From positions 96,001-160,000 of IMG/VR virus record IMGVR_UViG_3300030329_005082: 64,000 nt of DNA. One strand, written 5' to 3'. Every line of letters starts with the position of its first letter. Positions within the stretch are counted from its first letter, which is position 1. The notes beneath the pieces are model-generated. The model ran no database searches, was not told the DNA's origin, and saw nothing but the letters and a program-made list of their open reading frames with translations. The position numbers and the translations under genes were made by a program. The stretch is from a virus. Positions 42,744 to 63,539 of the stretch are shown in pieces.

Positions 42744-43974
42744 TTAGACTCCCCATCTGATTTATAACTCTATAATACATCTCGTTGATATTTTCTTGAG
42801 AGAACTTATTGCGTATATGTTCTCCCAATAATGCTGCATCTTTTTTATTAGTAATAGGAGATGTCACTAAGTTTCTAAGGTTTTTCTGTAATGATTCATT
42901 TTTAGGATAACACCATTCACATTCTGGAGTAATCAATCCTGGCATAAGGTGATCTTGTTTTACTTTCTCAATATCATACGATGTTTTTAAAAACAAGTTC
43001 TTTCTTTTTGTTTTTCCGCTTTTTTCATTTGTAACCGGGGCATGTAAAAAGTCCATATGACCCGACCATGAAGGAGCAATGACTGGAATGTCGGCACATA
43101 CGGCATTGAAAATTGGTATACCGAAACCTTCGCCGTGAGCATGTGAAACATAACCTGTAATAACATCCGGATCATAAAGAGAGAACACTTCCTCTTGAGA
43201 AAGGTTGCCATGAATTAGATGAACTTTACACTTGTGCTCTGGTGATTTGAAATTCAAGTACTTCTTCAACAAGTCCTTGGTCATCTTTTCATCTATTCGG
43301 CTATTGTTCCTCATATAAGTCTTTAGGATAAATGAGGCATCTTCATCATCATTGAATTCATCCAAGAACGAACCAAGCATTTCAAAGATGTTTTTACGTG
43401 GAGCAAGCTGCGACACGCACAAGAAATTTTTGCTCGTAGTGATGGCTTCGTAACCGGAAAATTTTTCTCTTTCTTGAGGAAGGTTGTTATAGAAAGGAAT
43501 AACCTCAATAGGCGTCCTAATTTTTTCATTTGTTTGGCTGTCAACGGCTTTCAAGAGGTTTTCTCTAGCATGGTTGGAAACCACAAGAATCTTTTGAACC
43601 ATATTACAGTTAGCAATCCACTCTTTAGGAGCAGCCACGGTTTCCAAAGCGGCAGTCACCCCGATGTCATAGTTGGTAACTTTGTGCCATTCGTTGGGAG
43701 GTCGTACTTGAAAGCAGCAGTCAAAGCCGTCAGGCATAGAAGTGCCGGTAGACTTCAGAAACTTAAGATACTGCTGGGTATTCTCAATGAGGGGTCCGTA
43801 CTTGCTGGTATAATCTAGGTTACGGGATGCTTCAGCCCACTGGAGATCAACCAAGTGTACTATATGTTTTTGTGGGCTGGATAAGAGTGCGTCTGCTATT
43901 ACCCGTGCATGATCGCTGTAACCGCTAACGTTGCAGAAAGATCCGATGATTAATATTTTCTTTTGTTCCGTCAT
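42700..43974 (-). CDS. Glycosyltransferase family 4
   Basis: SGYSDHAR, PRKNI, AHGEGFGIP, PVIAPSWSGHMDF. Confidence 0.85.
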   Translation of the reverse strand: MTEQKKILIIGSFCNVSGYSDHARVIADALLSSPQKHIVHLVDLQWAEASRNLDYTSKYGPLIENTQQYLKFLKSTGTSMPDGFDCCFQVRPPNEWHKVTNYDIGVTAALETVAAPKEWIANCNMVQKILVVSNHARENLLKAVDSQTNEKIRTPIEVIPFYNNLPQEREKFSGYEAITTSKNFLCVSQLAPRKNIFEMLGSFLDEFNDDEDASFILKTYMRNNSRIDEKMTKDLLKKYLNFKSPEHKCKVHLIHGNLSQEEVFSLYDPDVITGYVSHAHGEGFGIPIFNAVCADIPVIAPSWSGHMDFLHAPVTNEKSGKTKRKNLFLKTSYDIEKVKQDHLMPGLITPECEWCYPKNESLQKNLRNLVTSPITNKKDAALLGEHIRNKFSQENINEMYYRVINQMGSLNASGETDDAQILEL

Positions 43975-45221
43975 AATTCAGTCATTCTCCATGCTTGGTA
44001 GTTCTTACGATTTCCCCACGATCCGTACTTTTCATGAATCTCTTGAAGAAGATTAACCCAAGAAGTGCCGTAGTTGTCAAAGTTGTAGTTCTTCATGACA
44101 TGTTCACGTCCTTGTTGACCTAGTTCTTCCCTTTTTTTCGGAGACATTGCGTAAATCTCATTCAATGCGGAAATGAAATCTTCCTTTGAAACACGATCTT
44201 CATAAATGTAAGGAACTTGTTGGGAGCCGATGAGGGCTTTGGATGCTGGCTTTAAGCCGATTCCAAACCAGTTTTCCCCATCAGTTAGCTGCTCTTGTAG
44301 TCCGCCAGTAAGAGTAGCAATAATCGGTGTCTCGCTGGCCAATGATTCTAGGGTTGATAATCCGAACCCTTCAGCATCGGCAATATTGACTGTACAATCA
44401 GCAATGCCATAAAGCTTTGCTAGATCTTCTGCCGGCAAACCTTCCTTAGAGAAGATAACCTCTGAGTTGACAAGTCCATAATGTTCTGCTAAGTACTCAA
44501 GTGGTTGTCCATGCGGATCATCTGGTTTTGTGTGCATAATCAAACAGGCGCTGTCTTGATCTATGTGATCCTGCTTCAGGAATTCACTAAACCAATGGAT
44601 GAGTGTCCCGCTCTGCTTCCTTCTAGCATTTCTATTATTCCAGAAAACAATAAATTTGTCTTTTAGAGCTTTGTTGTTTTTTAATACGTCTGCTCTTTCT
44701 GATGCCGATATTTTCCGGAAAATGTCTACTGGCACAGCGTGAGGCAAATAAACCTCGTGAACATCCGGAGATACGTTTTGAACAATATCACTGGTGACTT
44801 TTGAAATTGTCACTATTACATCATTTGAATCGTAAAACTTCTTATTATACATGGGCAGCGGATAATTGTCCCATACATGATAATAAATCATGGGGATATT
44901 TTGGCGAATATCTTCCTCAAACATCCACAACCACTCATAATATCTTGGATCAGTCATAAACCAAAGCATATCTGGCTTAACTTGATTGATTAATCCTAGA
45001 ATTTGCTGCTTATCGCCGTAACCATCTACAGGAAGAATGTGCCAATGCTCTTCCTTCTTCATCAAATTGTAATTCGGATGTTTAATAGCTCCACCAAGTG
45101 AAAATACTTCAAACTTTCCGGACTTCAGAAGAGCCTCAATCATATACTTTGTTTGTGTACCAACACCTGATGGCAGTAAAGGGTGGTCACTAATCGTCAT
45201 GACCTTGATTCTATCTGACAA
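43971..45221 (-). CDS. Glycosyltransferase family 4
   Basis: SDHPLLPSGVG, NRNARRK, AEGFGLSTLESLASETPII..TGG. Confidence 0.85.
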   Translation of the reverse strand: MSDRIKVMTISDHPLLPSGVGTQTKYMIEALLKSGKFEVFSLGGAIKHPNYNLMKKEEHWHILPVDGYGDKQQILGLINQVKPDMLWFMTDPRYYEWLWMFEEDIRQNIPMIYYHVWDNYPLPMYNKKFYDSNDVIVTISKVTSDIVQNVSPDVHEVYLPHAVPVDIFRKISASERADVLKNNKALKDKFIVFWNNRNARRKQSGTLIHWFSEFLKQDHIDQDSACLIMHTKPDDPHGQPLEYLAEHYGLVNSEVIFSKEGLPAEDLAKLYGIADCTVNIADAEGFGLSTLESLASETPIIATLTGGLQEQLTDGENWFGIGLKPASKALIGSQQVPYIYEDRVSKEDFISALNEIYAMSPKKREELGQQGREHVMKNYNFDNYGTSWVNLLQEIHEKYGSWGNRKNYQAWRMTEL

Positions 45222-46082: not shown

Positions 46083-46742
46083 TTAGAGATTGTGTAAATT
46101 CTCTATCTTATTATACAACAAAGGACTGATTTTGAATAGTGTTTCTTTGTTTCCCATGTAAAAAGCTTCAAAACCCGTTGCAAAATATTCCCTGAGAGAT
46201 ACAGATGCATATGGTCTTACGAAGAGTCCAGCGGTGGATAACTTCAGCATATTTCCACCAACCCTATCATATAAGAACATATCTAAGTCCTTATTGTATT
46301 TAATATCTGTAAAATCATACTCTTCGGTCCAGTAACCCTCTGCACGCAATTCTGCTTCTAACATCTTTCGCTTCTTTAGAAATTCTGACTGGATCTCACC
46401 ATCGTCATAGATCTCTTTTACATATTCTGTCTCTAGGTGATGAGCCATCTCATGAATCAAATCATCCAGAAGATCAACTAATTTATCCTGTTTGTCTGAC
46501 AAATAAAGCCAATCGTTAGAATATAGGGCTGATATGTTCCTATCGTCAAATTCTTCTCTATGGGCAATTTCAACCCCTTTGAGCCCTTTGAAATAATGTG
46601 AAGGAAACTTATCTTCAACTGCTCTAAACACAGGGGAGAAGTCTACGCCGTCTTCTGCTGGTTCTTCTTGATTAACTACAACATTCCCAAATCTAAAATG
46701 TCGGGTAGTGTTTTTAGTTTTTTCAAGAATGTATTCTCTCAT
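46083..46742 (-). CDS. Zincin-like metallopeptidase-domain protein
   Basis: IHEMAHH (HExxH) and downstream REYFATGF (third-ligand E). Confidence 0.6.
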   Translation of the reverse strand: MREYILEKTKNTTRHFRFGNVVVNQEEPAEDGVDFSPVFRAVEDKFPSHYFKGLKGVEIAHREEFDDRNISALYSNDWLYLSDKQDKLVDLLDDLIHEMAHHLETEYVKEIYDDGEIQSEFLKKRKMLEAELRAEGYWTEEYDFTDIKYNKDLDMFLYDRVGGNMLKLSTAGLFVRPYASVSLREYFATGFEAFYMGNKETLFKISPLLYNKIENLHNL

Positions 46743-48040
46743 AATATCTCTGCTGCCAAGGTTGCTAGTTTGGATCTTTCACCTTTATAAAGAGTTACGT
46801 GACCAGAAATTTCATAATTCTTAAATTTTTCAACAGCGTGTGTAAGCCCATTAGATACAGCATCCACATAAGAATTATCTATTTGCTGCACATCTCCTGT
46901 TAGAATAAGTTTGGTTCCGTGTCCTACTCGTGTGATTATAGTCTTAAGTTCGTGTGCCGTTAAGTTCTGAGCCTCATCAACAATTATAAAAGCGTTAGAG
47001 ATTGAACGGCCTCGTATAAATGTCATGGCTTCAATTTCAATAATCCCTTGTTCCATTTGAATATCTAGAGCCATCCTATCCCCATAGAGATGTTCTAAAT
47101 TATCTCTCAAAGGAGCAATCCATGGAGCCATCTTTTCTTCAAGTGTGCCTGGGAGGAATCCTATATCGCGACCCATCGGCTGAACTGGTCTTGTAATGAT
47201 AAGTTTATCGTACCCACCTGAGTTTCTAGTAGTATTGATAACTTGTTCTAGACCGCAAGCAGCAGCCAACAAAGTCTTGCCTGTGCCGGCAGGTCCTGTC
47301 ATTGATACAATTTGAATATCCCTGTTGAACAAGAGATTCATTGCAAATTCTTGTTCTTTATTCTTTGCAGACAATCCCCATATGTTTTTATACTTTACAA
47401 GCTTTTTCAATGGAGTATTGTGATTCTTGAACTCACAAACAGCAGATTTAGTACTAGACTTGCTTTTGAGAATTATGAATTGATTAGGGTGTAATAACGC
47501 GTCCTCCGGCAGAAAAACATCATCACCTTCATAAAATTTATTGATTACATCTTCATCCACTTGTATAGTTGTACACCCATCGTACAAATTCTTTACAGAA
47601 CTGATTACTTTTTGTGGCTGATAGTCTTCGCACTTAATTCCAAATGAATCACACTTGACTCGCATATTGATATCACGAGAAACAACTGTAAGCTCATGAC
47701 CTTCGGATATAAGTTTTTTTGCTGTGGCAATGATTTTATTATCTGAGTCTTGACTATTCATACCTTCTGGTAAGAAAGTCTTATCAAATTGTGCTGCAAA
47801 CAACCTGCCTTTTCCTCTGCCAAGGGCAACGCCATCAAGCAGACTACCCTTTGAGCGGAGACCATCCAGAAACTTGTTGGTCACTCTGGCATTTAACCCT
47901 GGTGTATCTTGTCTGTGTTTGTGTTTATCTATTTCATCCAGAACAATTGTAGGGATGGCTATATTACTCTTGCCAAAGGATAAGATTGAGCGAACTTCAG
48001 TTAGTAAAACATTTGTATCTAATAGTACTGTTTTGGTCAA
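46739..48040 (-). CDS. phoH: PIN-domain + PhoH ATPase fusion (PhoH2/YlaK type)
   Basis: LLDTNVL and DNKII PIN motifs; GPAGTGKT Walker A; RGRS; IVDEAQN; GDVQQID; TTG start after AAGGAGG. Confidence 0.92.
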   Translation of the reverse strand: MTKTVLLDTNVLLTEVRSILSFGKSNIAIPTIVLDEIDKHKHRQDTPGLNARVTNKFLDGLRSKGSLLDGVALGRGKGRLFAAQFDKTFLPEGMNSQDSDNKIIATAKKLISEGHELTVVSRDINMRVKCDSFGIKCEDYQPQKVISSVKNLYDGCTTIQVDEDVINKFYEGDDVFLPEDALLHPNQFIILKSKSSTKSAVCEFKNHNTPLKKLVKYKNIWGLSAKNKEQEFAMNLLFNRDIQIVSMTGPAGTGKTLLAAACGLEQVINTTRNSGGYDKLIITRPVQPMGRDIGFLPGTLEEKMAPWIAPLRDNLEHLYGDRMALDIQMEQGIIEIEAMTFIRGRSISNAFIIVDEAQNLTAHELKTIITRVGHGTKLILTGDVQQIDNSYVDAVSNGLTHAVEKFKNYEISGHVTLYKGERSKLATLAAEIL

Positions 48041-48082: not shown

Positions 48083-48108
48083 AAAGAAAAAGCCGCCCGA
48101 AGGCGGCT
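48083..48108 (-). terminator. Rho-independent terminator of tmRNA
   Basis: AGCCGCC-TTCG-GGCGGCT then TTTTCTTT; overlaps the last base of the CCA end. Confidence 0.9.
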
Positions 48109-48430
48109 GGTGGAGGTAGGGAGAATTGAACTCCCGTCTTGTCTAGTTCCATAAAAAGGTCATTTACAAGGTTAGTAGTGCTTTTATCGTCGGCAAAACA
48201 CTTGACTAGATCATTTTACTTCTGGTGAAAATAATCAAAAACACTTAGGAATTCAAATATGGCTTTCTGTTTATTGGCTGCCACCGCCTCAAACATCGTC
48301 AGGTTATTAAGCTGCGAGTGCTAGTTGAAAATCGTCGTTTGCGATTATTAGATAAGCGTTTTTAGTGAGCCACGCTTCCCTCACCCTTGCACCTTTTTTA
48401 CTTTCCTATCAATCGATCCCGGTTACCCCC
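48108..48430 (-). ncRNA. ssrA: tmRNA (one-piece, 323 nt); tag (A)ANDDFQLALAA**
   Basis: Acceptor stem GGGGGTA/TACCTCC with G3:U70, A-CCA end, T-arm GGGAG-TTCAATT-CTCCC, resume codon GCA at 48342 after TAATC, double TAA at 48309-48304. Confidence 0.95.
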
Positions 48431-49378: not shown

Positions 49379-52300
49379 TTATCTTCGTCTTTGTCGTTTA
49401 GGACGATTTACTTTGGGTTTCGTGCTTTTTTTGCGTCTTTTTTTCGGGAATGAAGCAGGGGCATACCCTGGAGATCCGAGAGTTGAACCAGGCGCAAAAC
49501 CATTTCCTCCGCCCTCAACAGCACCGCCGGCCATGGTTGCCATTTCCTCTATAGCAGCATCTATTTCAGAATCTATCTGATCAGTTGGTTTAAAGATCCT
49601 CCAGATCTCTTCGCCGTCAACACTGTCAGGCATATAAGATAAAAACTCATCTTTTTTATTCAAATTGATAAAGTCGCGAATATCTTCAGCACTAAACACC
49701 TGTCCTTCTGAGGAGGTTACGGGTTCTTCTTCAATTTCTTCTACTGATATGCCGGGGTTGTGTCTTTCTGCATATGATTTGGCATTTTGGAAACGGGTGT
49801 CACCCTCATCCTTACTACTCTTGATTAATAATATTGTGTCTTGTGGTCTTGATTTGACAGGATCAGCCAAAAATTCATATACTGTTGTAACGGGACTCCT
49901 GTAGTCTGCAATCTCTACGCTTATTTTGGGAGACGCATCAGAAGATGATAAGAACTTAGACCATATTTCAAGAGATTGTTCAGCAGACACTTCTGGTTTA
50001 TCTACAGGGCTAATCAAAACCATCACATTATCTACATCTGATCTCTTTGCTACTTGATTTACAAATTCGTAATGACCTTTGTGTGGCGGCTTGAACTTGC
50101 CAGGAAATAGAGCAATTCTTTTACCTTCTTCTTCAACAAGTGGTTGAACAGATTCATTGCGTTGACCTGGCGCATCAGAGTCTTGAGAGATCTGTTGAGA
50201 CATCTCGTCAGCAACAACTTTAGATTCTTCAATTGCTTTTTGCCCGGCACCAATAGCCTGGCTTCTATCTTGATAAGTAAAATAATCATTTACATTTTCA
50301 GACAATTTAGATGTTGCTTCAAAAACCCTCTGCAAATTATCAGATAAGAATTCCATATATTGTTCAGCAACATCAACAACTCTTTCTGTGGTAATTGGCA
50401 GCGTACCTAATGTTTCATAATCTAAGCTACTAGAAACTGCCTTCAATTGTTGAGGACTGATAGCCCACTGGGTGCCGCCTGCACGCTCTAATAACAACCC
50501 CTCTGAGATGAGTCTTTTATTTTCTTCTACAGAATAAATCCTGTGGGCTGCTAGCTGTTGCGGCTCTATATCGGTACCATCTGGTAGCTCATCAGAGACA
50601 GTGACGGTTTCATCGGGTGCAGGTGGTGTCTTCTTCCTGTTTCTATACCCTTTTGTCATTTGTAAGAGTTTATATTTTTCCGGCCAATTGGAATCACCTG
50701 TAAGACTGTTGAGTTTCTTGATAGAACTGGACGGGGTGCGAGCAATTTCATAAGGAAGTGCAAATAATTGGGCGTCCTTGGTTGTACCACCTTTTGCAGA
50801 TGCAATAATTGCATTTATAAAGTTATCTCTTGTGAAAGTGAATTTTTCTAAAGCAATATTATCGCCATCTTTTCTGGCAACGATATATACCATTTGTCCA
50901 AACTCTTCTAAAGAATCAACAAGATTGGTATAACTTCCTTCAATCTTAGTTTTTTGATTTAATAATTTGAGACTGATAGGAACTGGCTGTGTGTCTTCAA
51001 GTTCTGAAAAGGCAATAAGATCTTGGATAGGTAAATTCCCTTTTTCACTTACTTCGGCTTCTTGTTTTCCACGAAACAATGCTGACAAGAACCCTTCAAA
51101 GACAAACCCAGCAGAGGCAGAATTAAAGCTCCTGATGACTGCTGATAAAGATTCTAACAAAATAAGAGTGCTGATAATTCTTCGTGGCGAGCGAATACCG
51201 CCGCGAGGATTATTAATACTATCATTTAAAAACTGAAGCTTTTCTTGGATAGTTGCGCCACCACCAACAGTGTCAAAGATCTTTTGAATTTGCTTTCTTT
51301 CCATAGACTCAGGGTCACCCCAAGCCTCAGTTGGTACAAATTTAGGAAGTGAGAGAACAAATTGTTTTGCTTTTTCCCTCTTAATATTTCCCTCATCTTC
51401 TGTTAGGATATTTCTAGGACGGGAAATACTTTCATTTGCAACGGCTGGGGAAGTTCTTCCACCAAATTTGAACATTCCAAGAATCTGATTTAGAGGTGCA
51501 AAATTTCCAGAAAACTTATAAGTGTGACCATCATAATCAAAAACAACAGCCTCAACAGGAGTGGTTATTTGTGAAAAGTCCTTAATCTTATTCAGGTGCC
51601 TTTGCATCACCTCCATGGCAGCCGGGTTTTCTGGACCCATTGCTGTCAATTCTCTGACTGCTGTTGCTAATTCATCTCTTAGGCGAATTACTTCTTTATC
51701 TGTGTCTGCAATGAAAACACTATCAAGTCCCTTTAATAACTCTACAGCAAAATCATGAATAACTATTTCAAGTGGTTCAATCGCTTGTTGTAACAAGGAT
51801 TTTTTACTGTTGATTACATTATTTAGATCCTGAAGATCTTGTGGGTTCAGACCTTTCTTAAGGGCTCTTAATCCAATATTACCGGGTAATTTTAAGAGAT
51901 ATTTTACGATCCCATCTTTCATATTATCTGGTAATTCTGTATCAAGACCGTGAAACAAACGAGAATATAAGTAATCAGTCATAGTGGAATCGTCGGATAA
52001 TCCATTTTGAGATATTTCACGATTTATCTTCTCTATAGAAGACTTAAGGACTTCTTCATCTTCCATTTTTTGAAGTTGTATAATAGCCTTTCTGGCAAGA
52101 TTGAACCTATTGTCAGATAGTTGATCTTGCATTCTTTCTAAAGAGTTATCAATTATTTCCAATGATCCGTTTGGAATAGGACGCCGTTCTCCGGTTTCTT
52201 TATCAAAACGAAAATGACCCACTCCATGTATCTTGAGAGTCTTATTATCATATTTTATAACATTTACAGACCCTGGGTCGTTAGAGTCGCCTTCGGTGCC

Positions 52301-52681
52301 AGGGTCCATAATCTCAGCGTTATACCAAATATTTGCGTCAGATCCAAAGACTTTTTCTTTTTCCTCATCAGACAGCGCCTCAACAGCTTTTTCAAATGCT
52401 GCAAATCCGCCTGTAAAAGCCTGAGTCAAACCACCTCGTCCTGCAAATTTTGTAGCTAGACCTTCAGCATCTAACCCTCCTGACATAAGGTTCCCCTTAT
52501 TTCTGGCTCCTTTTGCTTTTCCTTCCGGAATAGAATAAGAAAGAAAAAGATTTTGCCCGTCTACCTTCTCTTCGGCAGTAAGTTCTGCGTCAGCAGCAGC
52601 CTTCAGAATCTCTTTCATTTTTGCAAAAGTTAGACTACGGTTATCGTAGAGGTGGTCCATGTGACCTGCAACGCCACCCAT
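49379..52681 (-). CDS. 1100-aa fusion: ATP-dependent ligase-like domain + PD-(D/E)XK-like domain + HxGH nucleotidyltransferase
   Basis: EKVDG (I), NAE (III), EAVVF (IV), YKF (V); GFVFE...PIQD...ISLK; FPGKFKPPHKGH...SAEDIR. Confidence 0.65.
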   Translation of the reverse strand: MGGVAGHMDHLYDNRSLTFAKMKEILKAAADAELTAEEKVDGQNLFLSYSIPEGKAKGARNKGNLMSGGLDAEGLATKFAGRGGLTQAFTGGFAAFEKAVEALSDEEKEKVFGSDANIWYNAEIMDPGTEGDSNDPGSVNVIKYDNKTLKIHGVGHFRFDKETGERRPIPNGSLEIIDNSLERMQDQLSDNRFNLARKAIIQLQKMEDEEVLKSSIEKINREISQNGLSDDSTMTDYLYSRLFHGLDTELPDNMKDGIVKYLLKLPGNIGLRALKKGLNPQDLQDLNNVINSKKSLLQQAIEPLEIVIHDFAVELLKGLDSVFIADTDKEVIRLRDELATAVRELTAMGPENPAAMEVMQRHLNKIKDFSQITTPVEAVVFDYDGHTYKFSGNFAPLNQILGMFKFGGRTSPAVANESISRPRNILTEDEGNIKREKAKQFVLSLPKFVPTEAWGDPESMERKQIQKIFDTVGGGATIQEKLQFLNDSINNPRGGIRSPRRIISTLILLESLSAVIRSFNSASAGFVFEGFLSALFRGKQEAEVSEKGNLPIQDLIAFSELEDTQPVPISLKLLNQKTKIEGSYTNLVDSLEEFGQMVYIVARKDGDNIALEKFTFTRDNFINAIIASAKGGTTKDAQLFALPYEIARTPSSSIKKLNSLTGDSNWPEKYKLLQMTKGYRNRKKTPPAPDETVTVSDELPDGTDIEPQQLAAHRIYSVEENKRLISEGLLLERAGGTQWAISPQQLKAVSSSLDYETLGTLPITTERVVDVAEQYMEFLSDNLQRVFEATSKLSENVNDYFTYQDRSQAIGAGQKAIEESKVVADEMSQQISQDSDAPGQRNESVQPLVEEEGKRIALFPGKFKPPHKGHYEFVNQVAKRSDVDNVMVLISPVDKPEVSAEQSLEIWSKFLSSSDASPKISVEIADYRSPVTTVYEFLADPVKSRPQDTILLIKSSKDEGDTRFQNAKSYAERHNPGISVEEIEEEPVTSSEGQVFSAEDIRDFINLNKKDEFLSYMPDSVDGEEIWRIFKPTDQIDSEIDAAIEEMATMAGGAVEGGGNGFAPGSTLGSPGYAPASFPKKRRKKSTKPKVNRPKRQRRR

Positions 52682-54459: not shown

Positions 54460-55350
54460 TCAACGAAAAGTGTTTTCAAGCTTTAGGTTCATTTCTTCAA
54501 TCCATATTCTGTCAACCTTGGTGTTGACATTGGGTGTTTTGTTTGCTTTTTCCCAAAGCTGCATTTCTCCTTTAGCGATTGCCTTCTTGAGAAATACTTT
54601 AATAGCGACAAGTGGAGAAGATAATCCAACATTTTCAATAACAGAATATCCTGCAAATATAACCCCAACCAGTTCGTTGTTTTTGTTTATTACAGGAGAT
54701 CCACTTGAGCCAGGTTTAGTTGGAATAGTGTAAATAGAGTATCCACGATTATGGTAACCGGAAAAAATACCTTTAAAAATCAACACAGATCCAGGCCAAA
54801 ATAATCCGTGCGGTGCTGCCATATTTATAACAGTCTCTCCTTTTTTTGGTTCTTCACTTGCTACCTTTAAAACAGGGTGTTCTGTATAAATGTCTGAGAC
54901 TTGTAATAGGCATAAATCAAACCTGTCGTTTATATCAACAACTCGGGCTTTATATTCTGTTCCCTCCAGATCTACTACAGTAAAAGTAGACCCCTTGTTT
55001 ATTACCTTGTATCCATCAATATTTTGAACTTTAGGTATCTTATTCTCGCAGGAATGTCCGGCAGTCATAACATAAGAAATGCTCTGAGAAACCTCACTGC
55101 GGAAAACAAATGCACCAGAAGATACATACCTCATCATTGCTTTTTGGCAAGCTATTTTTTCGGTTTTTGGATCTTTTCCGCAGCCCTCAAGCTCAATTGA
55201 GTGTTTGATTTGTGTGAATGTGTGTCTTGGTAAAATCTCTTTTTTATCTTCTTGATTTAAATTAACTGTAGCACATCCACTGACACAACTAGACAAACTA
55301 AATAACGAAATTATAAGAAACTTGACGTAAATTGGTGTTTTTTTCTGCAT
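54460..55350 (-). CDS. Trypsin-like (S1) serine protease, probable lipoprotein
   Basis: TAGHSC (His), DLCLL (Asp), PGSSGSP (Ser); signal with LSSC lipobox-like Cys. Confidence 0.88.
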   Translation of the reverse strand: MQKKTPIYVKFLIISLFSLSSCVSGCATVNLNQEDKKEILPRHTFTQIKHSIELEGCGKDPKTEKIACQKAMMRYVSSGAFVFRSEVSQSISYVMTAGHSCENKIPKVQNIDGYKVINKGSTFTVVDLEGTEYKARVVDINDRFDLCLLQVSDIYTEHPVLKVASEEPKKGETVINMAAPHGLFWPGSVLIFKGIFSGYHNRGYSIYTIPTKPGSSGSPVINKNNELVGVIFAGYSVIENVGLSSPLVAIKVFLKKAIAKGEMQLWEKANKTPNVNTKVDRIWIEEMNLKLENTFR

Positions 55351-55357
55351 AGCATAG

Positions 55358-55383
55358 TAACTAGATTGAAAGGATACTATTTA
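55358..55383. promoter_or_regulatory. Back-to-back divergent TANTTA boxes
   Basis: TAGTTA on minus (55363-55358) and CTATTTAT on plus (core 55378-55383), each facing its own gene. Confidence 0.55.
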
Positions 55384-55419
55384 TCCACAGTAAATCAACA
55401 CAAATCATTTACTAAAGGA

Positions 55420-55686
55420 ATGGAATTTCAAATGATGAGCACCATTATGTTATCTGGTCTTTTGCTTTTTTCTAGTCAAAGTCTTGAATTTCCTAAAGTT
55501 TGGCAGAAAATACAAGGACAATGGTCCTATGTTGGTCAAGTTAAGGAAAAAACACAAATTTTGATTTGGATAGAAAAGAAAACAAAAACCCCAAACAATA
55601 AGATACTTACTAAAGAGATAAAGAAGATGCCATTTATCACTTTATCACCAACGGGAGAGGTGTTGAATCTAGATCCACTCCCATAA
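55420..55686 (+). CDS. Small secreted protein
   Basis: Hydrophobic signal IMLSGLLLFSSQS; start ATG 55420 or 55432. Confidence 0.6.
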   Translation: MEFQMMSTIMLSGLLLFSSQSLEFPKVWQKIQGQWSYVGQVKEKTQILIWIEKKTKTPNNKILTKEIKKMPFITLSPTGEVLNLDPLP

Positions 55687-55699
55687 GGAGCGGTCTTAT

Positions 55700-56170
55700 A
55701 TGTTCAAACTTCTAACAAGAAGAACTACCCTTTTAGGTATCTTAGCCTTTACGGCTGCTGTTTCACTACATTATCAGATTAAAGCAAACAGTCTATATCA
55801 AACAGTCTTCAAAAAAGAATCCACTTTTTACACACCCGGTCAACACGGAAACTGTAAATGGGTGGTTCATATAAGTAATAAAATTACAACAGAGCCAGGC
55901 GATAATTCTGCGGCTCAAATAGGCATTCCAGAAGTAAGCAAAGATGGTTATATTGCCGGGATACTTCAAAATGGTCCTGGGAACTCTTTATTATTTGCCT
56001 TTAAGCTTCCCACCCAGTCCGGTGATTCTCCTCCATTTATCATGACTGCTACATACAATCTGGAAGATTTACCACTAAAGCAGATAAAATTTAGGGTATT
56101 CAATAGTACAGCTATGACAATGATTTTATATTCTACATACGAAAGTTGTGTTGAGGCTACAATGAGATGA
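55700..56170 (+). CDS. Secreted or membrane-anchored hypothetical protein
   Basis: TAAGGAG SD; signal peptide MFKLLTRRTTLLGILAFTAAVSL. Confidence 0.7.
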   Translation: MFKLLTRRTTLLGILAFTAAVSLHYQIKANSLYQTVFKKESTFYTPGQHGNCKWVVHISNKITTEPGDNSAAQIGIPEVSKDGYIAGILQNGPGNSLLFAFKLPTQSGDSPPFIMTATYNLEDLPLKQIKFRVFNSTAMTMILYSTYESCVEATMR

Positions 56171-57426
56171 GGCAGATCTCTATAATTCTGTCTTGTTTAA
56201 TACTTGCATCATGCCAAGCTTGTTTAGATGATGACCAATTAGTCGCCCTAGAGTGTGCGCCAGGAACTATTCAGGTGTGCGACCATAACGGACAAATACT
56301 CACCTCTCTTAATCACAGAGACCCTCCAGAAAAAGCAGGCGTTTGCAGGTATGGAGCCAGAACTTGTACATTTGATGGTTGGACAGAGTGTGTTGGTGCC
56401 ATAGGTCCATCGGAAGAGGTTTGTGATGGGTTAGATAATGACTGTAATTTGCTAGTGGATGATAATTTTCCAGAACAACACCAATTATGTGGCTTTGTTG
56501 AGGGTGCCGATTATGGTGTAGGGGTCTGTACACCAGGCGTCATGAAATGTGATAATGGATCTCTTTATTGTGATGGTCACGTTGGTCCATCCGAAGAGGT
56601 ATGTGACGGATTTGATAACAACTGCGACGGCTCTATAGATGAAGGTGTTGCTAATACAACTGCTATTGTTTGTTATGATGGCCCTGACGGGACGATGGCA
56701 ATTGGTGAATGCCGGGCTGGTGTTCGTTATTGTACTGATGGTGGTTTTGATGGACCCTGCGATGGGCAGATTTTACCAGTACAGGAGATATGTGACAATC
56801 TTGACAACGATTGTGATGGAGAGGTTGATGAAGGGTTTGATACCCGTGGAGTAGATTTAGTTTTTATAATTGATATTTCTGGCTCGTTTGATGATGAAAT
56901 AGACTCTATGATAGAGGGCATTACTCCGCTTTTAGATGACCCGATCACTAGTAATTTTCGCTTTGGTTTAGCTGTGATAGGTAGACAGAACCTTGGGAAT
57001 TATGAACCCCCATTGAACCGACATTCTGAAATGGTGACAGATTTTGTTCCTGCTGATGAATTTCTGCAATACCTTGAAGGGATGCGTCTTTTAGAGGATG
57101 GCGGCATAGAACCATCTATAGATGTAACTCTGTGGTCAATGGAAGGATTATATCCTTTTTCGTGGGATTTAGGGAATCAAAAAGTAATAATCTTAATGAC
57201 TGATGAAGTCGCGCAAACGATTACAGGAAGAGAAGTGACCCAAGTGAATGATCATGCTGTGCAGAATGGTTTTGAAATATTTGTTTTTGCTCTCCCTGAA
57301 CATCATCATTCGTTCTTAGGAATGGTTCGTGATGACCAAGATAGATTATATACTCCCGCTGTCAACTCACAAACAGTTTTCCAGCAGATTAGACAAATAT
57401 TTGAAGATTTATGTATCGGTGGTTAA
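56167..57426 (+). CDS. Lipoprotein with three MopE-related Cys-rich repeats and a C-terminal vWA domain
   Basis: LASC lipobox; E.CDGLDNDC, CDGFDNNCDG.IDEG, CDNLDNDCDG.VDEG; MIDAS DISGS, E..I, ILMTDE. Confidence 0.85.
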   Translation: MRQISIILSCLILASCQACLDDDQLVALECAPGTIQVCDHNGQILTSLNHRDPPEKAGVCRYGARTCTFDGWTECVGAIGPSEEVCDGLDNDCNLLVDDNFPEQHQLCGFVEGADYGVGVCTPGVMKCDNGSLYCDGHVGPSEEVCDGFDNNCDGSIDEGVANTTAIVCYDGPDGTMAIGECRAGVRYCTDGGFDGPCDGQILPVQEICDNLDNDCDGEVDEGFDTRGVDLVFIIDISGSFDDEIDSMIEGITPLLDDPITSNFRFGLAVIGRQNLGNYEPPLNRHSEMVTDFVPADEFLQYLEGMRLLEDGGIEPSIDVTLWSMEGLYPFSWDLGNQKVIILMTDEVAQTITGREVTQVNDHAVQNGFEIFVFALPEHHHSFLGMVRDDQDRLYTPAVNSQTVFQQIRQIFEDLCIGG

Positions 57427-57854
57427 TCCTCTAGGGGTTCTACAATTTCATCAGATTCTTCTTTATTTTCACCTTTGCTAGAATCAAAATCAACCTCAAC
57501 GGTTTCTTTTCCTTTCTCAAAAGCAAATCCAACATTTCCGTTGGTTGTAATGAATTTGCTACCACTGCCATCTTTTTTGAACTCTTCCTCTAGTTGGCTA
57601 TACATGTATATTTTAATGTTTTCTTTAAGAACTTTTGCATTATTCAAAAGATGCTCAACTATAATTTCTAATCTTTCAGCCATCTCAAGAGATTTTTTAG
57701 GATCTCCATGCTTGAGACTTGTTAGTAAAAGTGGAATAACATTGGGATGGCTTTTTTCAAAAGCCTCTATTGAATCAAGAGCTAACAGATGAAGAAACTT
57801 CCCAGCTTTATAATTTTTGATATTTAACTTTAGTTCTATATCTTTAGGTTCCAT
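57423..57854 (-). CDS. Hypothetical protein
   Basis: ATG 57854 after GGGGGAG; TAGTTA box at 57881-57886; stop overlaps the convergent lipoprotein stop. Confidence 0.65.
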   Translation of the reverse strand: MEPKDIELKLNIKNYKAGKFLHLLALDSIEAFEKSHPNVIPLLLTSLKHGDPKKSLEMAERLEIIVEHLLNNAKVLKENIKIYMYSQLEEEFKKDGSGSKFITTNGNVGFAFEKGKETVEVDFDSSKGENKEESDEIVEPLED

Positions 57855-57883
57855 TTTATCTCCCCCTAACATATTATCTATAA

Positions 57884-58438
57884 CTAGTAATTCTCTTCTA
57901 CATGTTTCCTTATAATTTCTTTAATGGCTTCCTTTTCTTCTTCAGTTTCTGCATGAGCCCATGACCAAGCCAAGGTCAACTTGATATCTCTTGTCTCTGC
58001 TTCTCCTTCTTGGATATATTTTTCTAATTCTTCTGAGATATCTTTAGAATCAATATCACTAGTGTCAATGTTTAAAGTTGAAGCAATGACAAATAAGGTA
58101 GCTAGGTCTCCTTCACTGTATGCTTCAGAGGCATCTGAAAAATATCTTGTCAAAACATCAGAATCTACTTTGTCGGGATGTGTTACTTTTGAAATTCTTC
58201 TATACAGTTTTTTCATGTCTTTAGACTTTTGTTTTTTTTCTTGTTCTATTTCTTCATCCTTTTCCTCTTTGGACAGTTTTTTAGCTCGGTTCATCATTTT
58301 CTCATATTCATCTGGGAAGTCTTTGTAAAACTGTTCTTTGAATTTCATAAACTTTTCTTGAGTTTCTTCAAGATCTTCTGACACATACTGTGCATGAAAT
58401 ACTAGTTTTTTTATATTTTTGGGACTTTCATCGGACAT
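57884..58438 (-). CDS. J-domain (DnaJ-like) protein
   Basis: KKLYRRISKVTHPDK, helix II plus HPD motif. Confidence 0.8.
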   Translation of the reverse strand: MSDESPKNIKKLVFHAQYVSEDLEETQEKFMKFKEQFYKDFPDEYEKMMNRAKKLSKEEKDEEIEQEKKQKSKDMKKLYRRISKVTHPDKVDSDVLTRYFSDASEAYSEGDLATLFVIASTLNIDTSDIDSKDISEELEKYIQEGEAETRDIKLTLAWSWAHAETEEEKEAIKEIIRKHVEENY

Positions 58439-58454: not shown

Positions 58455-58489
58455 TAAAGAAAGAAGGGGCGGCATAAAGCCACCCCTTC
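58455..58489 (-). terminator. Rho-independent terminator of the coiled-coil operon
   Basis: GAAGGGGTGGC-TTTAT-GCCGCCCCTTC then TTTCTTTA. Confidence 0.88.
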
Positions 58490-58525
58490 CAAAAAACCTT
58501 TACTGATATTTAGTACTATTACTTA

Positions 58526-60037
58526 TTAGCCAGCCTTGACTTCAAGCTTCATAAGCTCTTCAGCACCGGAGGTGTCGTAAGAAAAGATAAGATCAACATT
58601 ATCTGTACCGTCTACCAATTTAAGTGTACCACCGTTGGATCCGTCGCCTGCGAAAGCAAACTTAGCCTTGAAAGCATCAATGTTGCTTTGTACAGCAGAG
58701 TCACCAGCAGCACGATCAGCAGCCTCGCTAGCGATATTCACACCTAGTGCGGTATCAGCAGCGAGACGAGAAGCCTCAGCGGCAGCAACATCAGCAATAC
58801 GATCAACAAGCTCAGCATCAATAAGAGTATCAATGCTGTTATCCGCAGCCAAGCGTGATGACGCTTCAGCAGATAGAGCTGAACTACGTGCAGCAGATTC
58901 TGAAGCGAGATTCACAGAAATAGAAGCATCGGCAGATGCAGCTATTGACTTCTCTTGAGATACTGCGCCTTCACGATTACTAACTTCGTTAGCAAGCGAA
59001 TTGGCATAACCAGTATCTGCGGTTTCGCGAAGAACAATCTCAGCAGACAATGCAGCATTCTCAGAAGAAACTTCAGCAGCAAGGTTTGCATTGAGAGCAA
59101 CATCACCGGAAGCCATGCTAGAGGCTTCAGCAGTCAAAGCAGCACCGCGAGCAGTGACTTCAGCAGCAAGATTGTTACTTACAATTAGATCACCAGAAGC
59201 ATAAGCAGCTTCTTCACTAGCAACAGCCTCTTTACGAGAGCTAACCTCAGAAGATCTGAGAGCATCAAGTGCAGAATCAGCAGCCTCGTGAGCAACGACC
59301 TCAGAAGAGACGCCGGCTGAACGAAGGGCGATTTGAGTATTCAAGTCGCCTGTAATTGCTGTATCTACAGAAGCACGTGCAGCAGCCTCGGCAGCAACCA
59401 AGGTACCACGAGCAACAACAGCAGAAGAGATATCTTCTGACCGTGCCATGTCACCGGACAACTGAGAACTAGCCTCGGAAGAGAGAGCACTAGATCTTGC
59501 AGCGATTTGTGCTGTAATCCTTGTTTCCAAAGATGTATCAGCATTGCCACGCGCAAGAGCTTCAGCAGTAACAGCAGCACCACGTGCAGCAATTTCTACA
59601 TCTGCGCGAGAATCAACACTAGTATCAGCCGCGCCACGAGCAGCAGCTTCAGCAGCAACATCAGCAACACGCTCAGACTTGGCAGCACTAAGTGCAGCAG
59701 CCTCAACTACATCACCAGATTCACGAGCAGACAACTCTGAAGAGAGAGCTTGTGATCTTGCAGCCACTTCGGATGCGATATTCACTGAGATGAGGTTATC
59801 CCCTGCCAAGCGAGAGGAAGCCTCTGCGGCGATGGCAGCATCTTCTGCTACCAACTCATTGGAAAGGTTCCCCTCAATAACAACACGATGGCTTGCTTCA
59901 GCACTAAACTGGGCGTTTAGGGTACGATCAGCGCCACCTTCTGGGGTTGCAACTTTTAGAAATTCCGCCAACTCGTCGTGAGCAAGCATCTTCTTCTGAA
60001 GGACTAGGCCCTTTTTATCAGAAATATATGTAGCCAT
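58526..60037 (-). CDS. Ala-rich coiled-coil fibre-like protein, paralog 3 (503 aa)
   Basis: 29-aa period E-x-x-x-R-x-x-x-D repeats; shared GLVLQKKML N-terminus and beta-rich C-terminus; TAAGGAG SD. Confidence 0.8.
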   Translation of the reverse strand: MATYISDKKGLVLQKKMLAHDELAEFLKVATPEGGADRTLNAQFSAEASHRVVIEGNLSNELVAEDAAIAAEASSRLAGDNLISVNIASEVAARSQALSSELSARESGDVVEAAALSAAKSERVADVAAEAAARGAADTSVDSRADVEIAARGAAVTAEALARGNADTSLETRITAQIAARSSALSSEASSQLSGDMARSEDISSAVVARGTLVAAEAAARASVDTAITGDLNTQIALRSAGVSSEVVAHEAADSALDALRSSEVSSRKEAVASEEAAYASGDLIVSNNLAAEVTARGAALTAEASSMASGDVALNANLAAEVSSENAALSAEIVLRETADTGYANSLANEVSNREGAVSQEKSIAASADASISVNLASESAARSSALSAEASSRLAADNSIDTLIDAELVDRIADVAAAEASRLAADTALGVNIASEAADRAAGDSAVQSNIDAFKAKFAFAGDGSNGGTLKLVDGTDNVDLIFSYDTSGAEELMKLEVKAG

Positions 60038-60081
60038 TTTATTTTATCTCCTTATAAAATGTGTTTGTTTAAAAATGCTAA

Positions 60082-61581
60082 TTACGCACCCTTAAAGAGT
60101 TCTAGAAGTACAACACCAGAAACGGTGGTGAAGTTCATACGAACAACATCGGAACCATCAGTTAGAGTAAGGTTTGCACCGGCACCTGCGACATCGCCGC
60201 TGAAGCCGAACTTGGTGTCCAAGCTTGCAATTTCATTCATAATAACTGTATCAGCAGAAAGACGAGAAGAAGATTCAGAAGAAATCTCACCTTCTTTCAC
60301 TGTATCAGCAGACATACGACTAGAGACCTCTGTAGACAAGTCCGCAGAGCGACTAGAAACAGCGTTAGCAATCTTGGTATCAAGACTATTGTCCTTCTCC
60401 AAGCGTGTAGCCTCTTCAGCAATCACAAGAGCAGTACGTTCTGAGATTTCAGAAGAAATGCTAGAATCAAGAGCACTATCGCTAGCGGCTCTGATTGTTG
60501 CGATAGATGCAACAGCAACACCGCGTGCAGTCTCTTCACCGGTAACAGCAGTCATGATGCTATTATCAGCAGCAAGACGAGCATTACCTTCAGAAGTAGA
60601 ATCAGCAGCGCGAGCAGCTTCTTGTACATCAATAGCGTCAGAGATAGCCTGATCAGCAGCAACACGAGAAGAAGCCTCGGTTGATACGGCAGTGCTTCGT
60701 GCTGTTACTTCAGCAGCGATATTTGCACTGAGTGTAGAATCAGCGTTACCACGTGCAGTTGCCAAAGAGACAAACGCATCGCTAGCAACTGCATACTCTG
60801 TAGAAATTGCCTGAGATAAAACAAGATCCTTAGAAGCACGTGCGGCAGCTAAAGAAGTAATAGCAGCACCGCGGTTGCCAGCCTCTAGACCAATGTCTGA
60901 TGCCAAAGCATCATCAGCGGCAAGACGAGAAGAAGCCTCTGAAGACAAAGCTGCTTCACGAGCGGCGATTTCAACAACCAACGCTGAAGAAAGAGCCTTG
61001 TCGGCAGCAGATCTTGTAGCATCTTGTGCAGAATGAGCAGCAGCGCGAGCAACCGCTTCATCAGTAATTAATGTACCCAAAGAAGAGTCACCAGCCAAGC
61101 GAGAAGCTTCTTCGGCAGCGATCGCTACAACAGCAGCGGAGGCTTCAGAAGAAATTTTGCTAGACATAGCTGCATCATCTTTTATCATTTCGGACAACTC
61201 AGCAGATAGAGCAGAACTACGATCACCTGTTTCTGTTGTCAAATTTGCAGAAATACTATTATCTGCTGCGAGGCGAAGTGCCTCTTCGGCAAGAACAGCA
61301 GCTTCACGTGCTGCGATTTCGCTAGAAATATCACCGCTCAATACTGTATCGCCAGAAAGACGTGAACTGCGTTCAGCAGCCGCGGCTGAGGAACGAGAAG
61401 CAGCCTGAGTAACAATAGATGCACTGAGTCCGTCACGTTCGGTCTTTTCCATAGACAATTTTTCGTTGACAGTTTTGTCACCTGAAACCATTAGAAGAGC
61501 AGCTAGTTCATCGGATGCATCAAGCATCTCCTTTTGTAGGACTAAGCCATCTGCATCCCCGGCATTAATATATGTAGCCAT
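60082..61581 (-). CDS. Ala-rich coiled-coil fibre-like protein, paralog 2 (499 aa)
   Basis: Same architecture; TAAGGAGG SD. Confidence 0.8.
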   Translation of the reverse strand: MATYINAGDADGLVLQKEMLDASDELAALLMVSGDKTVNEKLSMEKTERDGLSASIVTQAASRSSAAAAERSSRLSGDTVLSGDISSEIAAREAAVLAEEALRLAADNSISANLTTETGDRSSALSAELSEMIKDDAAMSSKISSEASAAVVAIAAEEASRLAGDSSLGTLITDEAVARAAAHSAQDATRSAADKALSSALVVEIAAREAALSSEASSRLAADDALASDIGLEAGNRGAAITSLAAARASKDLVLSQAISTEYAVASDAFVSLATARGNADSTLSANIAAEVTARSTAVSTEASSRVAADQAISDAIDVQEAARAADSTSEGNARLAADNSIMTAVTGEETARGVAVASIATIRAASDSALDSSISSEISERTALVIAEEATRLEKDNSLDTKIANAVSSRSADLSTEVSSRMSADTVKEGEISSESSSRLSADTVIMNEIASLDTKFGFSGDVAGAGANLTLTDGSDVVRMNFTTVSGVVLLELFKGA

Positions 61582-61659
61582 TTTTTATTTCCTCCTTAGA
61601 AAATAAATTTGTATTCTAAACAACCAAATGATACAAAACCAATAAAGAGTTCTTAAGGT

Positions 61660-63168
61660 TTAGCTCAAGAACATCTTCACTAGAGTTGCATTGACCTTGA
61701 CAAACTGCGCCGTAACGCTGTTACCAGAAGCAGCATCGGTCATCAAAAGACTACCACCACCAGCACCATTGCCAGAGTAGGCAAGTCTATCAGTGAGGAC
61801 CTTAAGTTCAGAACTTCTAGCAGCATCACCAGCAGAGCGATCTGTAATAGCAGAAGCTAACACAGTGTCTAGAGAAGAATTTGCAGCCGCAGCAGCAGCC
61901 TCTTCAGCAAGAACAGCAGCTTTACGAGAGCTAACCTCGGAAGACAATGCACTTGATTCAGCGGCATCACCTGCGATACGAGCAGTGCTAGCATCAGCAA
62001 TATCAGATCCGCGATCAGAGATAGCATTGGTCAACTTGAGTGCAGCAGATGTATCACCAGCGGCGCGCAAAGCCTCTTCGGCGTCTATAGCAGCAATACG
62101 AGCAGAGACAGCAGTTGAAAGGTCTGCGGAAACTACAAGATCACCAGAAACACGAGAACTAGTCAAAGCAGTGTGATCTACAGCACGAGCAGCAGCTTCG
62201 TCATCAATCTCGCCCTGTAGAGCAAGATCTTCAGCGTTGCGTGCAGCAGCTTCAGCAGCAACAGCAACAACACGGGCAGAAACAGCAGTAGAGAGTGAGG
62301 TGCTATTAGCAGCATCACCAGCTTCGCGAGCAACGACTTCAGAAGAAATCTTAGCAACGCGATTAGCAACAGCAGCATCCTTGTCTGCGGTGAGTAATGT
62401 ATCAACACTACCACGAGCGGTGATTTCAGCAGCAATTGCAGCAGCATATGCAGCTTCTTCAGTATCTAGCGCAGCAGAAATTACTGCATCGCCAGACTCA
62501 CGCTGACTCAAACGAGTACTTAGATCAGTAGAACGATTTACTACTTCAGAAGAGAGAGTAGCAGCTAGGAGAGCATCACCAGAAACTCTAGCGTCGCTCA
62601 AAGAAGCCAAACCAGCATCTTCAGAAGACTTTTCAGATTCTAGAGCAGAATCAACAGCACTATCACCAGCAGCGCGAGCGTTAGAAGCTACGGTCATCAA
62701 AGATGCACGAGCGTCTTCAGCATCACTCATGTTTGTTGTGATGTTTACATCAGCAGCAGCACGAGCAGCAGCTTGAGCAGCGACAGCAGTATTCATTGCA
62801 GCCAATTCAGCAGCAATACCTGTAGAAAGAGCAGCATCACCAGCAACGCGAGCAGCTATTGCGTCAGTCATGTCAACCTCACGAGCAGCAACGCCAGTAG
62901 ATAGTGCTGCGCTTTGTGCGTCATCACCTGTACCACGAGCATTAATTGTTACTGTCATGTCAGATGCACGAGCAACAACTTCTGCACTTAGGGCTGTTGA
63001 AACAGCACCTCTTTGAATCATAGCTTCATCAAAAGCTTTGTTCAATTTTTTATCTAGGCCAGACTCTGGCTCGGAAACCATTAAAACCTCTGCAAGATCA
63101 GCGGATGAATCAAGCATTTTCTTTTGTAGGACTAAACCGGATTCGGATAGATTGGAAATATAAGGCAT
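61660..63168 (-). CDS. Ala-rich coiled-coil fibre-like protein, paralog 1 (502 aa)
   Basis: Same architecture; AAAGGAGG SD. Confidence 0.8.
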   Translation of the reverse strand: MPYISNLSESGLVLQKKMLDSSADLAEVLMVSEPESGLDKKLNKAFDEAMIQRGAVSTALSAEVVARASDMTVTINARGTGDDAQSAALSTGVAAREVDMTDAIAARVAGDAALSTGIAAELAAMNTAVAAQAAARAAADVNITTNMSDAEDARASLMTVASNARAAGDSAVDSALESEKSSEDAGLASLSDARVSGDALLAATLSSEVVNRSTDLSTRLSQRESGDAVISAALDTEEAAYAAAIAAEITARGSVDTLLTADKDAAVANRVAKISSEVVAREAGDAANSTSLSTAVSARVVAVAAEAAARNAEDLALQGEIDDEAAARAVDHTALTSSRVSGDLVVSADLSTAVSARIAAIDAEEALRAAGDTSAALKLTNAISDRGSDIADASTARIAGDAAESSALSSEVSSRKAAVLAEEAAAAAANSSLDTVLASAITDRSAGDAARSSELKVLTDRLAYSGNGAGGGSLLMTDAASGNSVTAQFVKVNATLVKMFLS

Positions 63169-63510: not shown

Positions 63511-63535
63511 AAAAAAAAGCTCCCTAAAAGGGAGC
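63511..63535 (-). terminator. Rho-independent terminator of the tRNA cluster
   Basis: GCTCCC-TTTTA-GGGAGC then T8. Confidence 0.9.
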
Positions 63536-63539
63536 CCTT

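Follow-up and report, generated by a model that had tools for sequence, protein, structure and literature searches.

Between-chain covariation points to a three-gene, heterotrimeric coiled-coil fibre in the genome of a distant T4-like phage

Three consecutive paralogous genes in the virus record IMGVR_UViG_3300030329_005082 (178,630 bp, CheckV completeness 98%) raise the question of whether three chains of almost equal length build three separate fibres or the three strands of a single one. The genes lie within a stretch of 64,000 nucleotides, bases 96001-160000 of that record, which we refer to as the window and to which coordinates refer unless a relative is named. An initial annotation, made from the DNA alone, had described open reading frames (ORFs) of 502, 499 and 503 amino acids (aa) and proposed that their products form an obligate 1:1:1 rod or else supply three interchangeable types of whisker. 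The three ORFs are present, consecutive and all on the minus strand, and are the sole copies in the genome. Matches to a gp23-type major capsid protein (206 bits), to a T4-type portal (271 bits) and to a contractile sheath mark this genome as that of a distant T4-like myovirus, an uncultured marine phage; it also carries a transfer-messenger RNA (tmRNA) and transfer RNAs (tRNAs). We know of no characterised phage fibre that is other than a homotrimer.

On the evidence set out below, we consider it probable that each of the three genes supplies a different strand of a single coiled coil (ABC), parallel and in register, with the cyclic order of the chains following the order of the genes. A 1:1:1 composition is favoured because, in all phages examined, loss of Glu in one chain goes with loss of Arg in another and always in the same cyclic order, because losses of a conserved repeat residue, Asp22, share layers, and because copy number, gene order and rod length are conserved. 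The genes and their rod segments are as follows.

61660..63168, minus strand: chain 1 gene, 502 aa, first in the operon; N-terminal peptide 1-60, rod 61-460, cap 461-502
61789..62988, minus strand: chain 1 rod, 400 residues, 13 x 29 + 23
60082..61581, minus strand: chain 2 gene, 499 aa; N-terminal peptide 1-56, rod 57-456, cap 457-499
60214..61413, minus strand: chain 2 rod, 400 residues
58526..60037, minus strand: chain 3 gene, 503 aa; N-terminal peptide 1-58, rod 59-458, cap 459-503
58664..59863, minus strand: chain 3 rod, 400 residues

All three chains carry the shared N-terminal motif that had been described (M-x-x-Y-I ... GLVLQK-x-M), and each ends in a chain-specific C-terminal beta cap; the cap had been put at about 45 aa and measures 42-45 aa. 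The proteins are rich in Ala (21-24%) and Ser (13-16%). Residue autocorrelation is maximal at lags of 29 and 58 in every chain (0.24-0.28, against about 0.15 elsewhere) and a profile of the 39 repeats matches the proposed 29-residue (18+11) coiled-coil period, [E-x3-R-x3-D-x9][E-x3-R-x6]: Glu occupies position 3 in 26/39 repeats and position 14 in 26/39, Arg occupies positions 7 and 18 (32/39 each), Asp22 is present in 38/39 and follows Gly or Ala at 21, while Val, Ile or Leu recurs at positions 4, 11, 25 and 29. From the first repeat to a C-terminal K-F-x-F motif, the rod spans exactly 400 residues in each chain with zero indels—13 full repeats plus 23 residues, rather than the 14-15 repeats first counted—so the matched length noted earlier holds despite only 26-36% identity between paralogous rods.

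An AlphaFold2 monomer model of chain 3, computed with orthologues, shows an uninterrupted helix over residues 40-459 at a predicted local distance difference test (pLDDT) score of 70-87, with residues 1-39 disordered and two short cap strands at low confidence. At 0.15 nm per residue the modelled rod would be 60-63 nm long; with 400-420 helical residues, the near-straight 60-65 nm rod suggested at the outset is a consistent estimate. With 29 residues spread over eight core layers, or 3.625 residues per turn, the hydrophobic stripe would keep to one face of the helix, for which reason coiled-coil theory leads one to expect almost straight helices.

Searches of Pfam, NCBIfam and PHROGs found no family for the three proteins, a PDB sequence search gave no match even at E<=10, and tblastn against 50,697 GenBank phages, with the low-complexity filter on, likewise returned none. 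ESM Atlas look-alikes of the N-terminal peptide and cap all scored below 0.9 and are leads only, including the cap's nearest clusters, which are viral and contain some fibre families.

Exact-protein look-ups and pattern scans recovered related trios at about 14 marine metagenomic or viral loci (given L numbers here). Chains were aligned without gaps by repeat register, after a MAFFT alignment of nine chains had been rejected for 29-residue slips; chain order was treated as cyclic (1->2->3->1, chain 3 thus preceding chain 1) and counts for each phage took in both units of 13 repeats for each of the 3 chain pairs. Of the 14 losses of Arg7 or Arg18 in the window, 13 are paired with loss of Glu3 or Glu14 in the same repeat of the preceding chain (odds ratio 51, p=5e-7), compared with 0/14 matched by Glu loss in the same chain and 1/14 in the following chain; a chain without Arg7 or Arg18 keeps its own Glu four residues earlier. 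The earlier remark that the core Arg is replaced at different repeats in each chain was therefore correct, and Arg loss tracks Glu loss in the chain before. Coupling to the preceding chain recurs in L010 (p=1e-8), L008 (6e-10), L007 (9e-14), L011 (2e-7), L014 (7e-8) and L020 (3e-5) and likewise in L009, with odds ratios of 30 to >700 and p from 3e-5 to 9e-14 over the eight phages. Counting Asp and Lys as equivalents leaves it unchanged, and it vanishes once the Glu-bearing chain is moved 1 or 2 repeats out of register (p 0.1-0.9).

Since this pattern had first been seen by eye, we also ran an unbiased scan of 812 position-pair tests, within the same chain and to the next chain at offsets of up to +-9. 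With phages pooled, inter-chain 3->7 came first (z 27.9), 22<->22 second and 14->18 third; among single phages, inter-chain 3->7 was again first in the window (z 8.5) and in L008 (z 8.0). Many independent replacements are seen among the sites (Gln/Glu, Ala/Met, Leu/Tyr, Leu/His and Ser/Trp among them). Changes between clades tell the same story: comparison of the window with L008 gave 11 double changes with the preceding chain (odds ratio 11, p=2e-4) and that of L010 with L008 gave 16 (odds ratio 14, p=9e-6), whereas co-change was much weaker for the other two relations, reaching p 0.01-0.05 at best for the following chain; for the same chain it was not significant in deep clade comparisons, and the two comparisons of closest phages gave p 0.002-0.014 from two double changes.

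Asp22 adds a second line of evidence. In independent lineages it has been lost in the same layer of all three chains, with a different replacement in each (shuffling p 0.0006-0.012): repeat 11 is affected in the L010 clade and repeat 2 in the L007/L008 clade, which has also lost it from two or three chains at repeats 9 and 10. Coincidence of poorly matching repeats between chains was weak and mostly non-significant (r 0-0.34) and is not used as evidence. The coupling of Glu with Arg and the shared Asp22 layers would imply inter-chain contacts specific to one chain order and register, on evidence that is statistical rather than structural.

A contrast is provided by proteins with the same repeat encoded by single genes. 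Searching 1.84 billion representative proteins with the rod-repeat profile yielded 2610 matches at E<=1e-3, of which 715 passed E<=1e-10, the longest matched protein having 5165 aa; autocorrelation maxima in the matches lie at lags 18, 29 and 11, and just three representatives among them have the full architecture from N-terminal peptide to cap. The E-x3-R-x3-D stalk repeat of 18/11 residues defines a very large superfamily of fibre stalks, with no Pfam match here, that deserves to be described as a family in its own right. Single-gene stalks share with the trio the repeat unit, the Glu-Arg coupling and, where examined, a phage structural context (one adjoins a terminase gene and a P22-type portal gene), but each of these fibres has a single gene, shows its coupling inside one chain (and is presumed to be a homotrimer), differs in length from the next and carries other domains at its N- and C-termini. 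As a positive control, about 150 of them showed Glu14 and Arg18 coupled within one chain, at an odds ratio of 23-48 that false repeat calls inflate, and an identical masked scan of the trio chains found within-chain coupling in 0/18 cases.

For each of the 11 possible cyclic compositions of a trimer we counted salt bridges, charges left without a partner (orphans) and pairs of like charge. The order 1-2-3 ranks first in 7/7 phages, with the fewest orphan charges and repulsions, and the order 1-3-2 and the homotrimers fare much worse. In the window it gives 51 bridges, 13 orphans and 1 repulsion, as against 39 bridges, 34 orphans and 4 repulsions for the reverse order 1-3-2 and 24 bridges, 48 orphans and 6 repulsions for a chain-1 homotrimer. 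Glu in place of Arg is mostly met by Gln in the partner chain, and the retained Glu of the same chain would face that Glu in a homotrimer, a feature of negative design.

An idealised straight three-helix bundle places inter-chain Glu(i) and Arg(i+4) C-beta atoms 9-11 A apart, within reach of a salt bridge, with Arg7 and Arg18 16-28 degrees off the centre of the core stripe and next to a small residue at 8 or 19; a Glu-Arg bridge between chains is on this geometry feasible. The two neighbours of a chain differ by 0.5-1 A only in this bundle, which cannot tell which of them pairs and so does not fix a handedness for the order 1-2-3.

The mechanism that we propose runs as follows. In each half-repeat, Glu and, four residues on, Arg would sit on or beside the core stripe, with Glu of chain 1 pairing with Arg of chain 2, Glu of 2 with Arg of 3 and Glu of 3 with Arg of 1, so that some 50 putative salt bridges would link the chains, all following the same cycle. 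At about a dozen layers the pair is replaced jointly in both partner chains—Gln facing Glu, for example, or Leu facing Tyr or His—and these co-replaced layers make each chain unique and would leave unpaired or like charges in homotrimers or in the reverse order. Asp22 would form a three-chain layer. The cap probably nucleates the trimer and sets its register, as the foldon of fibritin does, and the conserved N-terminal peptides probably dock the fibre to the T4-like particle; a trimer seems likelier than any higher order.

The relatives bear on this proposal through what they keep constant. Chain 1, chain 2, chain 3, a J-domain-like gene and a small acidic gene follow one another in that order in every contig long enough. 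All chains of both the window clade and the L010 clade have rods of exactly 400 residues, and those of the L007/L008/L020 clade have rods of 398-402. The initial annotation had suggested looking for three equal-length copies in relatives: in those found, copy number, order and rod length are conserved, and neither copy number nor length varies freely. Total lengths of chains 1/2/3, in aa, are as follows.

Window: 502/499/503
L009: 502/501/504
L011: 503/500/504
L007: 503/502/...
L010: 831/509/507
L014: .../509/504
L008 and L019: 835/508/497
L020: .../508/497

In a maximum-likelihood tree, chains 1, 2 and 3 form three clades (support 96-100; 100/99 for the chain 1 orthologues) with identical inner branching, from which we conclude that the triplication predates all sampled phages and that the three genes have co-diverged. 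Between orthologues, the N-terminal part is always more conserved than the rod (48-70% identity, against 31-45%), and the cap, at 24-82%, exceeds the rod in most pairs, the exception being chain 2 against the L008 clade (24%).

Differences in length of chain 1 reflect an N-terminal extension of about 330 aa, which is confined to chain 1 and occurs in about half of the relatives, namely the L010 clade and most members of the L008 clade; L007 and the window's phage have the short form. The extension comprises a concanavalin-like lectin domain (Laminin_G_3, E=1e-13 in L021) followed by an FnIII/Ig-like domain; AlphaFold2 models the lectin part poorly (pLDDT <55) and the last 85 or so residues well, with a weak match to FnIII/Ig folds. 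No separate homologue of the extension was found in the window's genome. All seven long-form genes (L008, L010, L012, L013, L014, L019 and L021; 7/7) carry GGAGGA 6-7 nucleotides before an internal, in-frame ATG at the start of the core, at these positions.

L008:1100-1165: GGAGGA and internal ATG, in-frame
L010:7955-8015: GGAGGA and internal ATG, in-frame
L012, L013, L014, L019 and L021: same site

GGAGGA encodes Gly-Gly by the codon GGA, which is used for 17% of glycines, and conservation of this motif with a minor Gly codon makes it probable that short chain 1 is also made from long-form genes, by internal initiation. If the trimer is asymmetric, it would carry exactly one lectin-like head.

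We infer a virion fibre because the superfamily occurs in phage-fibre contexts, the layout resembles that of fibritin and chain 1 bears a lectin extension in some relatives. The window's phage has the short form only, and the ends of its fibre would accordingly be a peptide bundle of about 45 aa and a small cap. A whisker-like, sensing or structural role seems as likely there as adhesion.

Several observations weigh against this interpretation. A chain-2 homotrimer is not strongly disfavoured in the window (48 salt bridges, 0 repulsions) and is tolerable by charge count; of the obligate 1:1:1 rod first proposed, the 1:1:1 order is supported by covariation, and what the data point to is a selected heterotrimer, not necessarily an obligate one. 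Sequences from related phages are non-independent, yet each per-phage test uses different repeats as its observations. The L007/L008/L020 clade has small indels unmatched in the other chains: repeat 6 of chain 1 is longer by 2 residues and repeat 12 of chain 3 shorter by 2, and in L007 chain 2 has gained 1 residue in repeats 7-8, so that an in-register heterotrimer would need local one-chain bulges in that clade; covariation is back in register after the clade's indels. The covariation would look no different in a closed (ABC)2 ring of six chains, but such a ring does not suit the narrow Ala-rich stripe. Finally, the operon lies about 80 kb from the capsid/tail module, adjoining tRNAs and auxiliary genes, and no receptor-binding tip was recognised on the fibre in the window's phage.

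Level with the +2 site (chain 1 repeat 6) of L007, L008, L019 and L020 stand a Trp in chain 3 and a Tyr in chain 2, and the rod may be knobbed or bulge locally there.

Among the rival explanations, the one that survives best accepts the ABC rod and denies that it belongs to the virion, making it an intracellular scaffold or filament during infection, or an (ABC)2 bundle. We consider it unlikely. The position of the operon—apart from the structural module and among tRNAs, a J-domain protein and exported proteins—speaks for it, as do the lack of a receptor-binding tip and a weak likeness to SF-assemblin, a filament protein with a 29-residue period (E=0.16). It has to contend, however, with the presence of the same repeat in thousands of long fibre-like proteins, one of them encoded beside terminase and P22-type portal, with the lectin-like and FnIII-like modules fused to chain 1 in some relatives, and with a layout of N-terminal peptide, rod and small beta cap that parallels fibritin; the narrow hydrophobic stripe, typical of three-stranded bundles, counts against the (ABC)2 form.

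Distinctly less probable are three separate homotrimeric fibres, the interchangeable whiskers of the initial annotation, with one docking motif and a common length ruler. All phage coiled-coil fibres so far characterised, T4 fibritin for one, are homotrimers, a single docking site could be served by the N-terminal motif that the chains share, and both the unmatched indels of 1-2 residues in the L007/L008 clade and the few same-chain charge conflicts in chain 2 fit such an arrangement. Homotrimers nevertheless predict coupling within chains, as in the single-gene relatives, whereas coupling in the trio is strong between chains and 0/14 within them in the window; a chain-1 homotrimer would leave 42-51 orphan charges and 6 repulsive pairs, and Asp22 losses coincide across chains. 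Least probable, by a little, are promiscuous trimers of variable composition (2:1 as well as 1:1:1), for although 2-2-3 and 2-3-3 are only moderately worse than 1-2-3 by charge count, all three chains are kept at every locus in fixed order and have co-diverged, covariation closes the full cycle, 3->1 included, and the caps are chain-specific, with identity above that of the rod in most orthologue pairs.

We therefore return to the ABC heterotrimer. That it is a natural, selected alpha-helical phage fibre—60 nm long, almost unsupercoiled and held in order and register by a readable code of about 50 inter-chain Glu->Arg pairs and a dozen co-replaced layers that disfavour homotrimers, its asymmetry serving in some lineages to bear a single lectin head on one chain made in long and short forms—is in our judgement the better bet, held with less assurance than the chain composition itself. 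Full-text literature searches found no heterotrimeric coiled-coil phage fibre. Homotrimer symmetry forces three identical tips and surfaces on a fibre; a fibre of three chains, if real, breaks that symmetry and could have one head instead of three, unique faces along its length and a single assembly register. It would also be a long natural ABC heterotrimer, non-heptad and near-straight, with specificity rules readable from sequence and about 14 natural variants, and hence a ready-made orthogonal heterotrimer scaffold. Selective heterotrimers are an active design problem, as in a recent preprint on a foldon-derived heterotrimer (10.1101/2025.03.25.645370). More generally, comparison of covariation between and within chains offers a cheap discriminator of hetero- and homo-oligomers among tandem paralogues in metagenomes.

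Each chain gene has the strong Shine-Dalgarno sequence reported for it (GGAGG/GGAG, 8-9 nucleotides 5' of the ATG), and both of the terminators said to bound the operon can be placed, one by a terminator scan and the other by eye. These and the downstream neighbours are listed here.

58462..58490, minus strand: intrinsic terminator 3' of chain 3, 12-bp stem with 8 GC pairs and a T-run, from the terminator scan
about 63511..63538, minus strand: terminator-like hairpin after tRNA-Ser at the upstream operon boundary, 6-bp GC stem and T8, read by eye and absent from the scanner's list
57884..58438, minus strand: J-domain-like protein, downstream neighbour, 184 aa, HPD motif invariant, conserved
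57423..57872, minus strand: acidic protein, downstream neighbour, 149 aa, conserved, without a family match

The J-domain-like protein is 184-205 aa long in the window and in L008-L020, has a weak DnaJ match in Pfam (E=1e-4) and is conserved at 59-88%, far above the chains of the fibre; host DnaK may be recruited by it, conceivably to help the fibre assemble. Next to this block, 54460-57426 encodes two lipoproteins, a trypsin-like protease and a MopE-repeat/vWA protein, the second of them on the only plus-strand stretch; L009 and L010 keep this block beside their trios. At 42700-45221 and 49379-52681, both on the minus strand, lie two genes for group-1 glycosyltransferases and one for a protein of 1100 aa with a cytidylyltransferase-like end; given the Ser/Thr-rich surface of the rod, glycosylation of virion proteins is conceivable.

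Elsewhere in the window, the phage tmRNA gene (48108-48430, minus strand; tag peptide ANDDFQLALAA) adjoins a PhoH/PIN fusion gene (46739-48040). A run of giant ORFs occupies the minus strand at 16648-26205 (3185 aa), 29939-35404 (1821 aa), 11972-15727 (1251 aa) and 8916-11969 (1017 aa); none matched a Pfam or PHROG family among those searched, and they are probably tail or baseplate giants, because an M23 peptidase gene (36337-37479) is nearby.

Of known systems, T4 fibritin is the closest in outline. Fibritin (gp wac), the collar whisker of phage T4, is the homotrimeric product of one gene and its coiled coil consists of heptad segments interrupted by loops. Fibritin is fixed to the neck (gp13/gp14) by its N-terminal domain, a region to which the 40 N-terminal residues, disordered in the chain 3 monomer model, would correspond in the trio. 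It shares with the trio a T4-like genome, a length of about 500 aa and a plan of N-terminal docking part, three-stranded coiled coil and C-terminal beta unit, but it has a single gene, whereas the trio has three, with a gap-free 29-residue period and charge pairing between chains. Fibritin_C (PF07921) has no Pfam match in the three proteins and nothing above cut-off genome-wide, the best match being a sub-threshold 13.5 bits inside the unrelated 3185-aa ORF; membership of the fibritin family fails on the foldon domain, on the single gene and on the homotrimer, covariation in the trio being only between chains. Laminin and fibrinogen each join three paralogous chains in one long parallel coiled-coil rod, in which charged residues and a terminal nucleating domain set chain choice; they differ in being eukaryotic, heptad-based, supercoiled, disulfide-linked and unrelated in sequence, and the likeness is one of analogy only.

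The 29-residue periodicity of SF-assemblin has been read as a set of four heptads to which one skip residue is added (J Cell Biol 1993, PMC2119799). The SF-assemblin/beta-giardin family (PF06705) thus has its period in common with the trio, which is not evidence of homology; its members form two-stranded cytoskeletal filaments of eukaryotes, and the family was rejected as a candidate with a match to chain 2 only (E=0.16, 11.8 bits against a gathering cut-off of 30.6 bits). In the virophage DSLV2, three consecutive paralogous fibre genes have been proposed to form one heterotrimer, mainly on the strength of modelling and binding assays (J Virol 2025, PMC12724248). The DSLV2 tail differs in its gp37-like beta-structured tip, the lack of an alpha-helical rod and the lack of any sequence relation to the trio (PMC12724248). 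Set beside these systems, the trio would represent a trimeric coiled-coil fibre of a phage that is built from three genes and whose pairing code can be deciphered.

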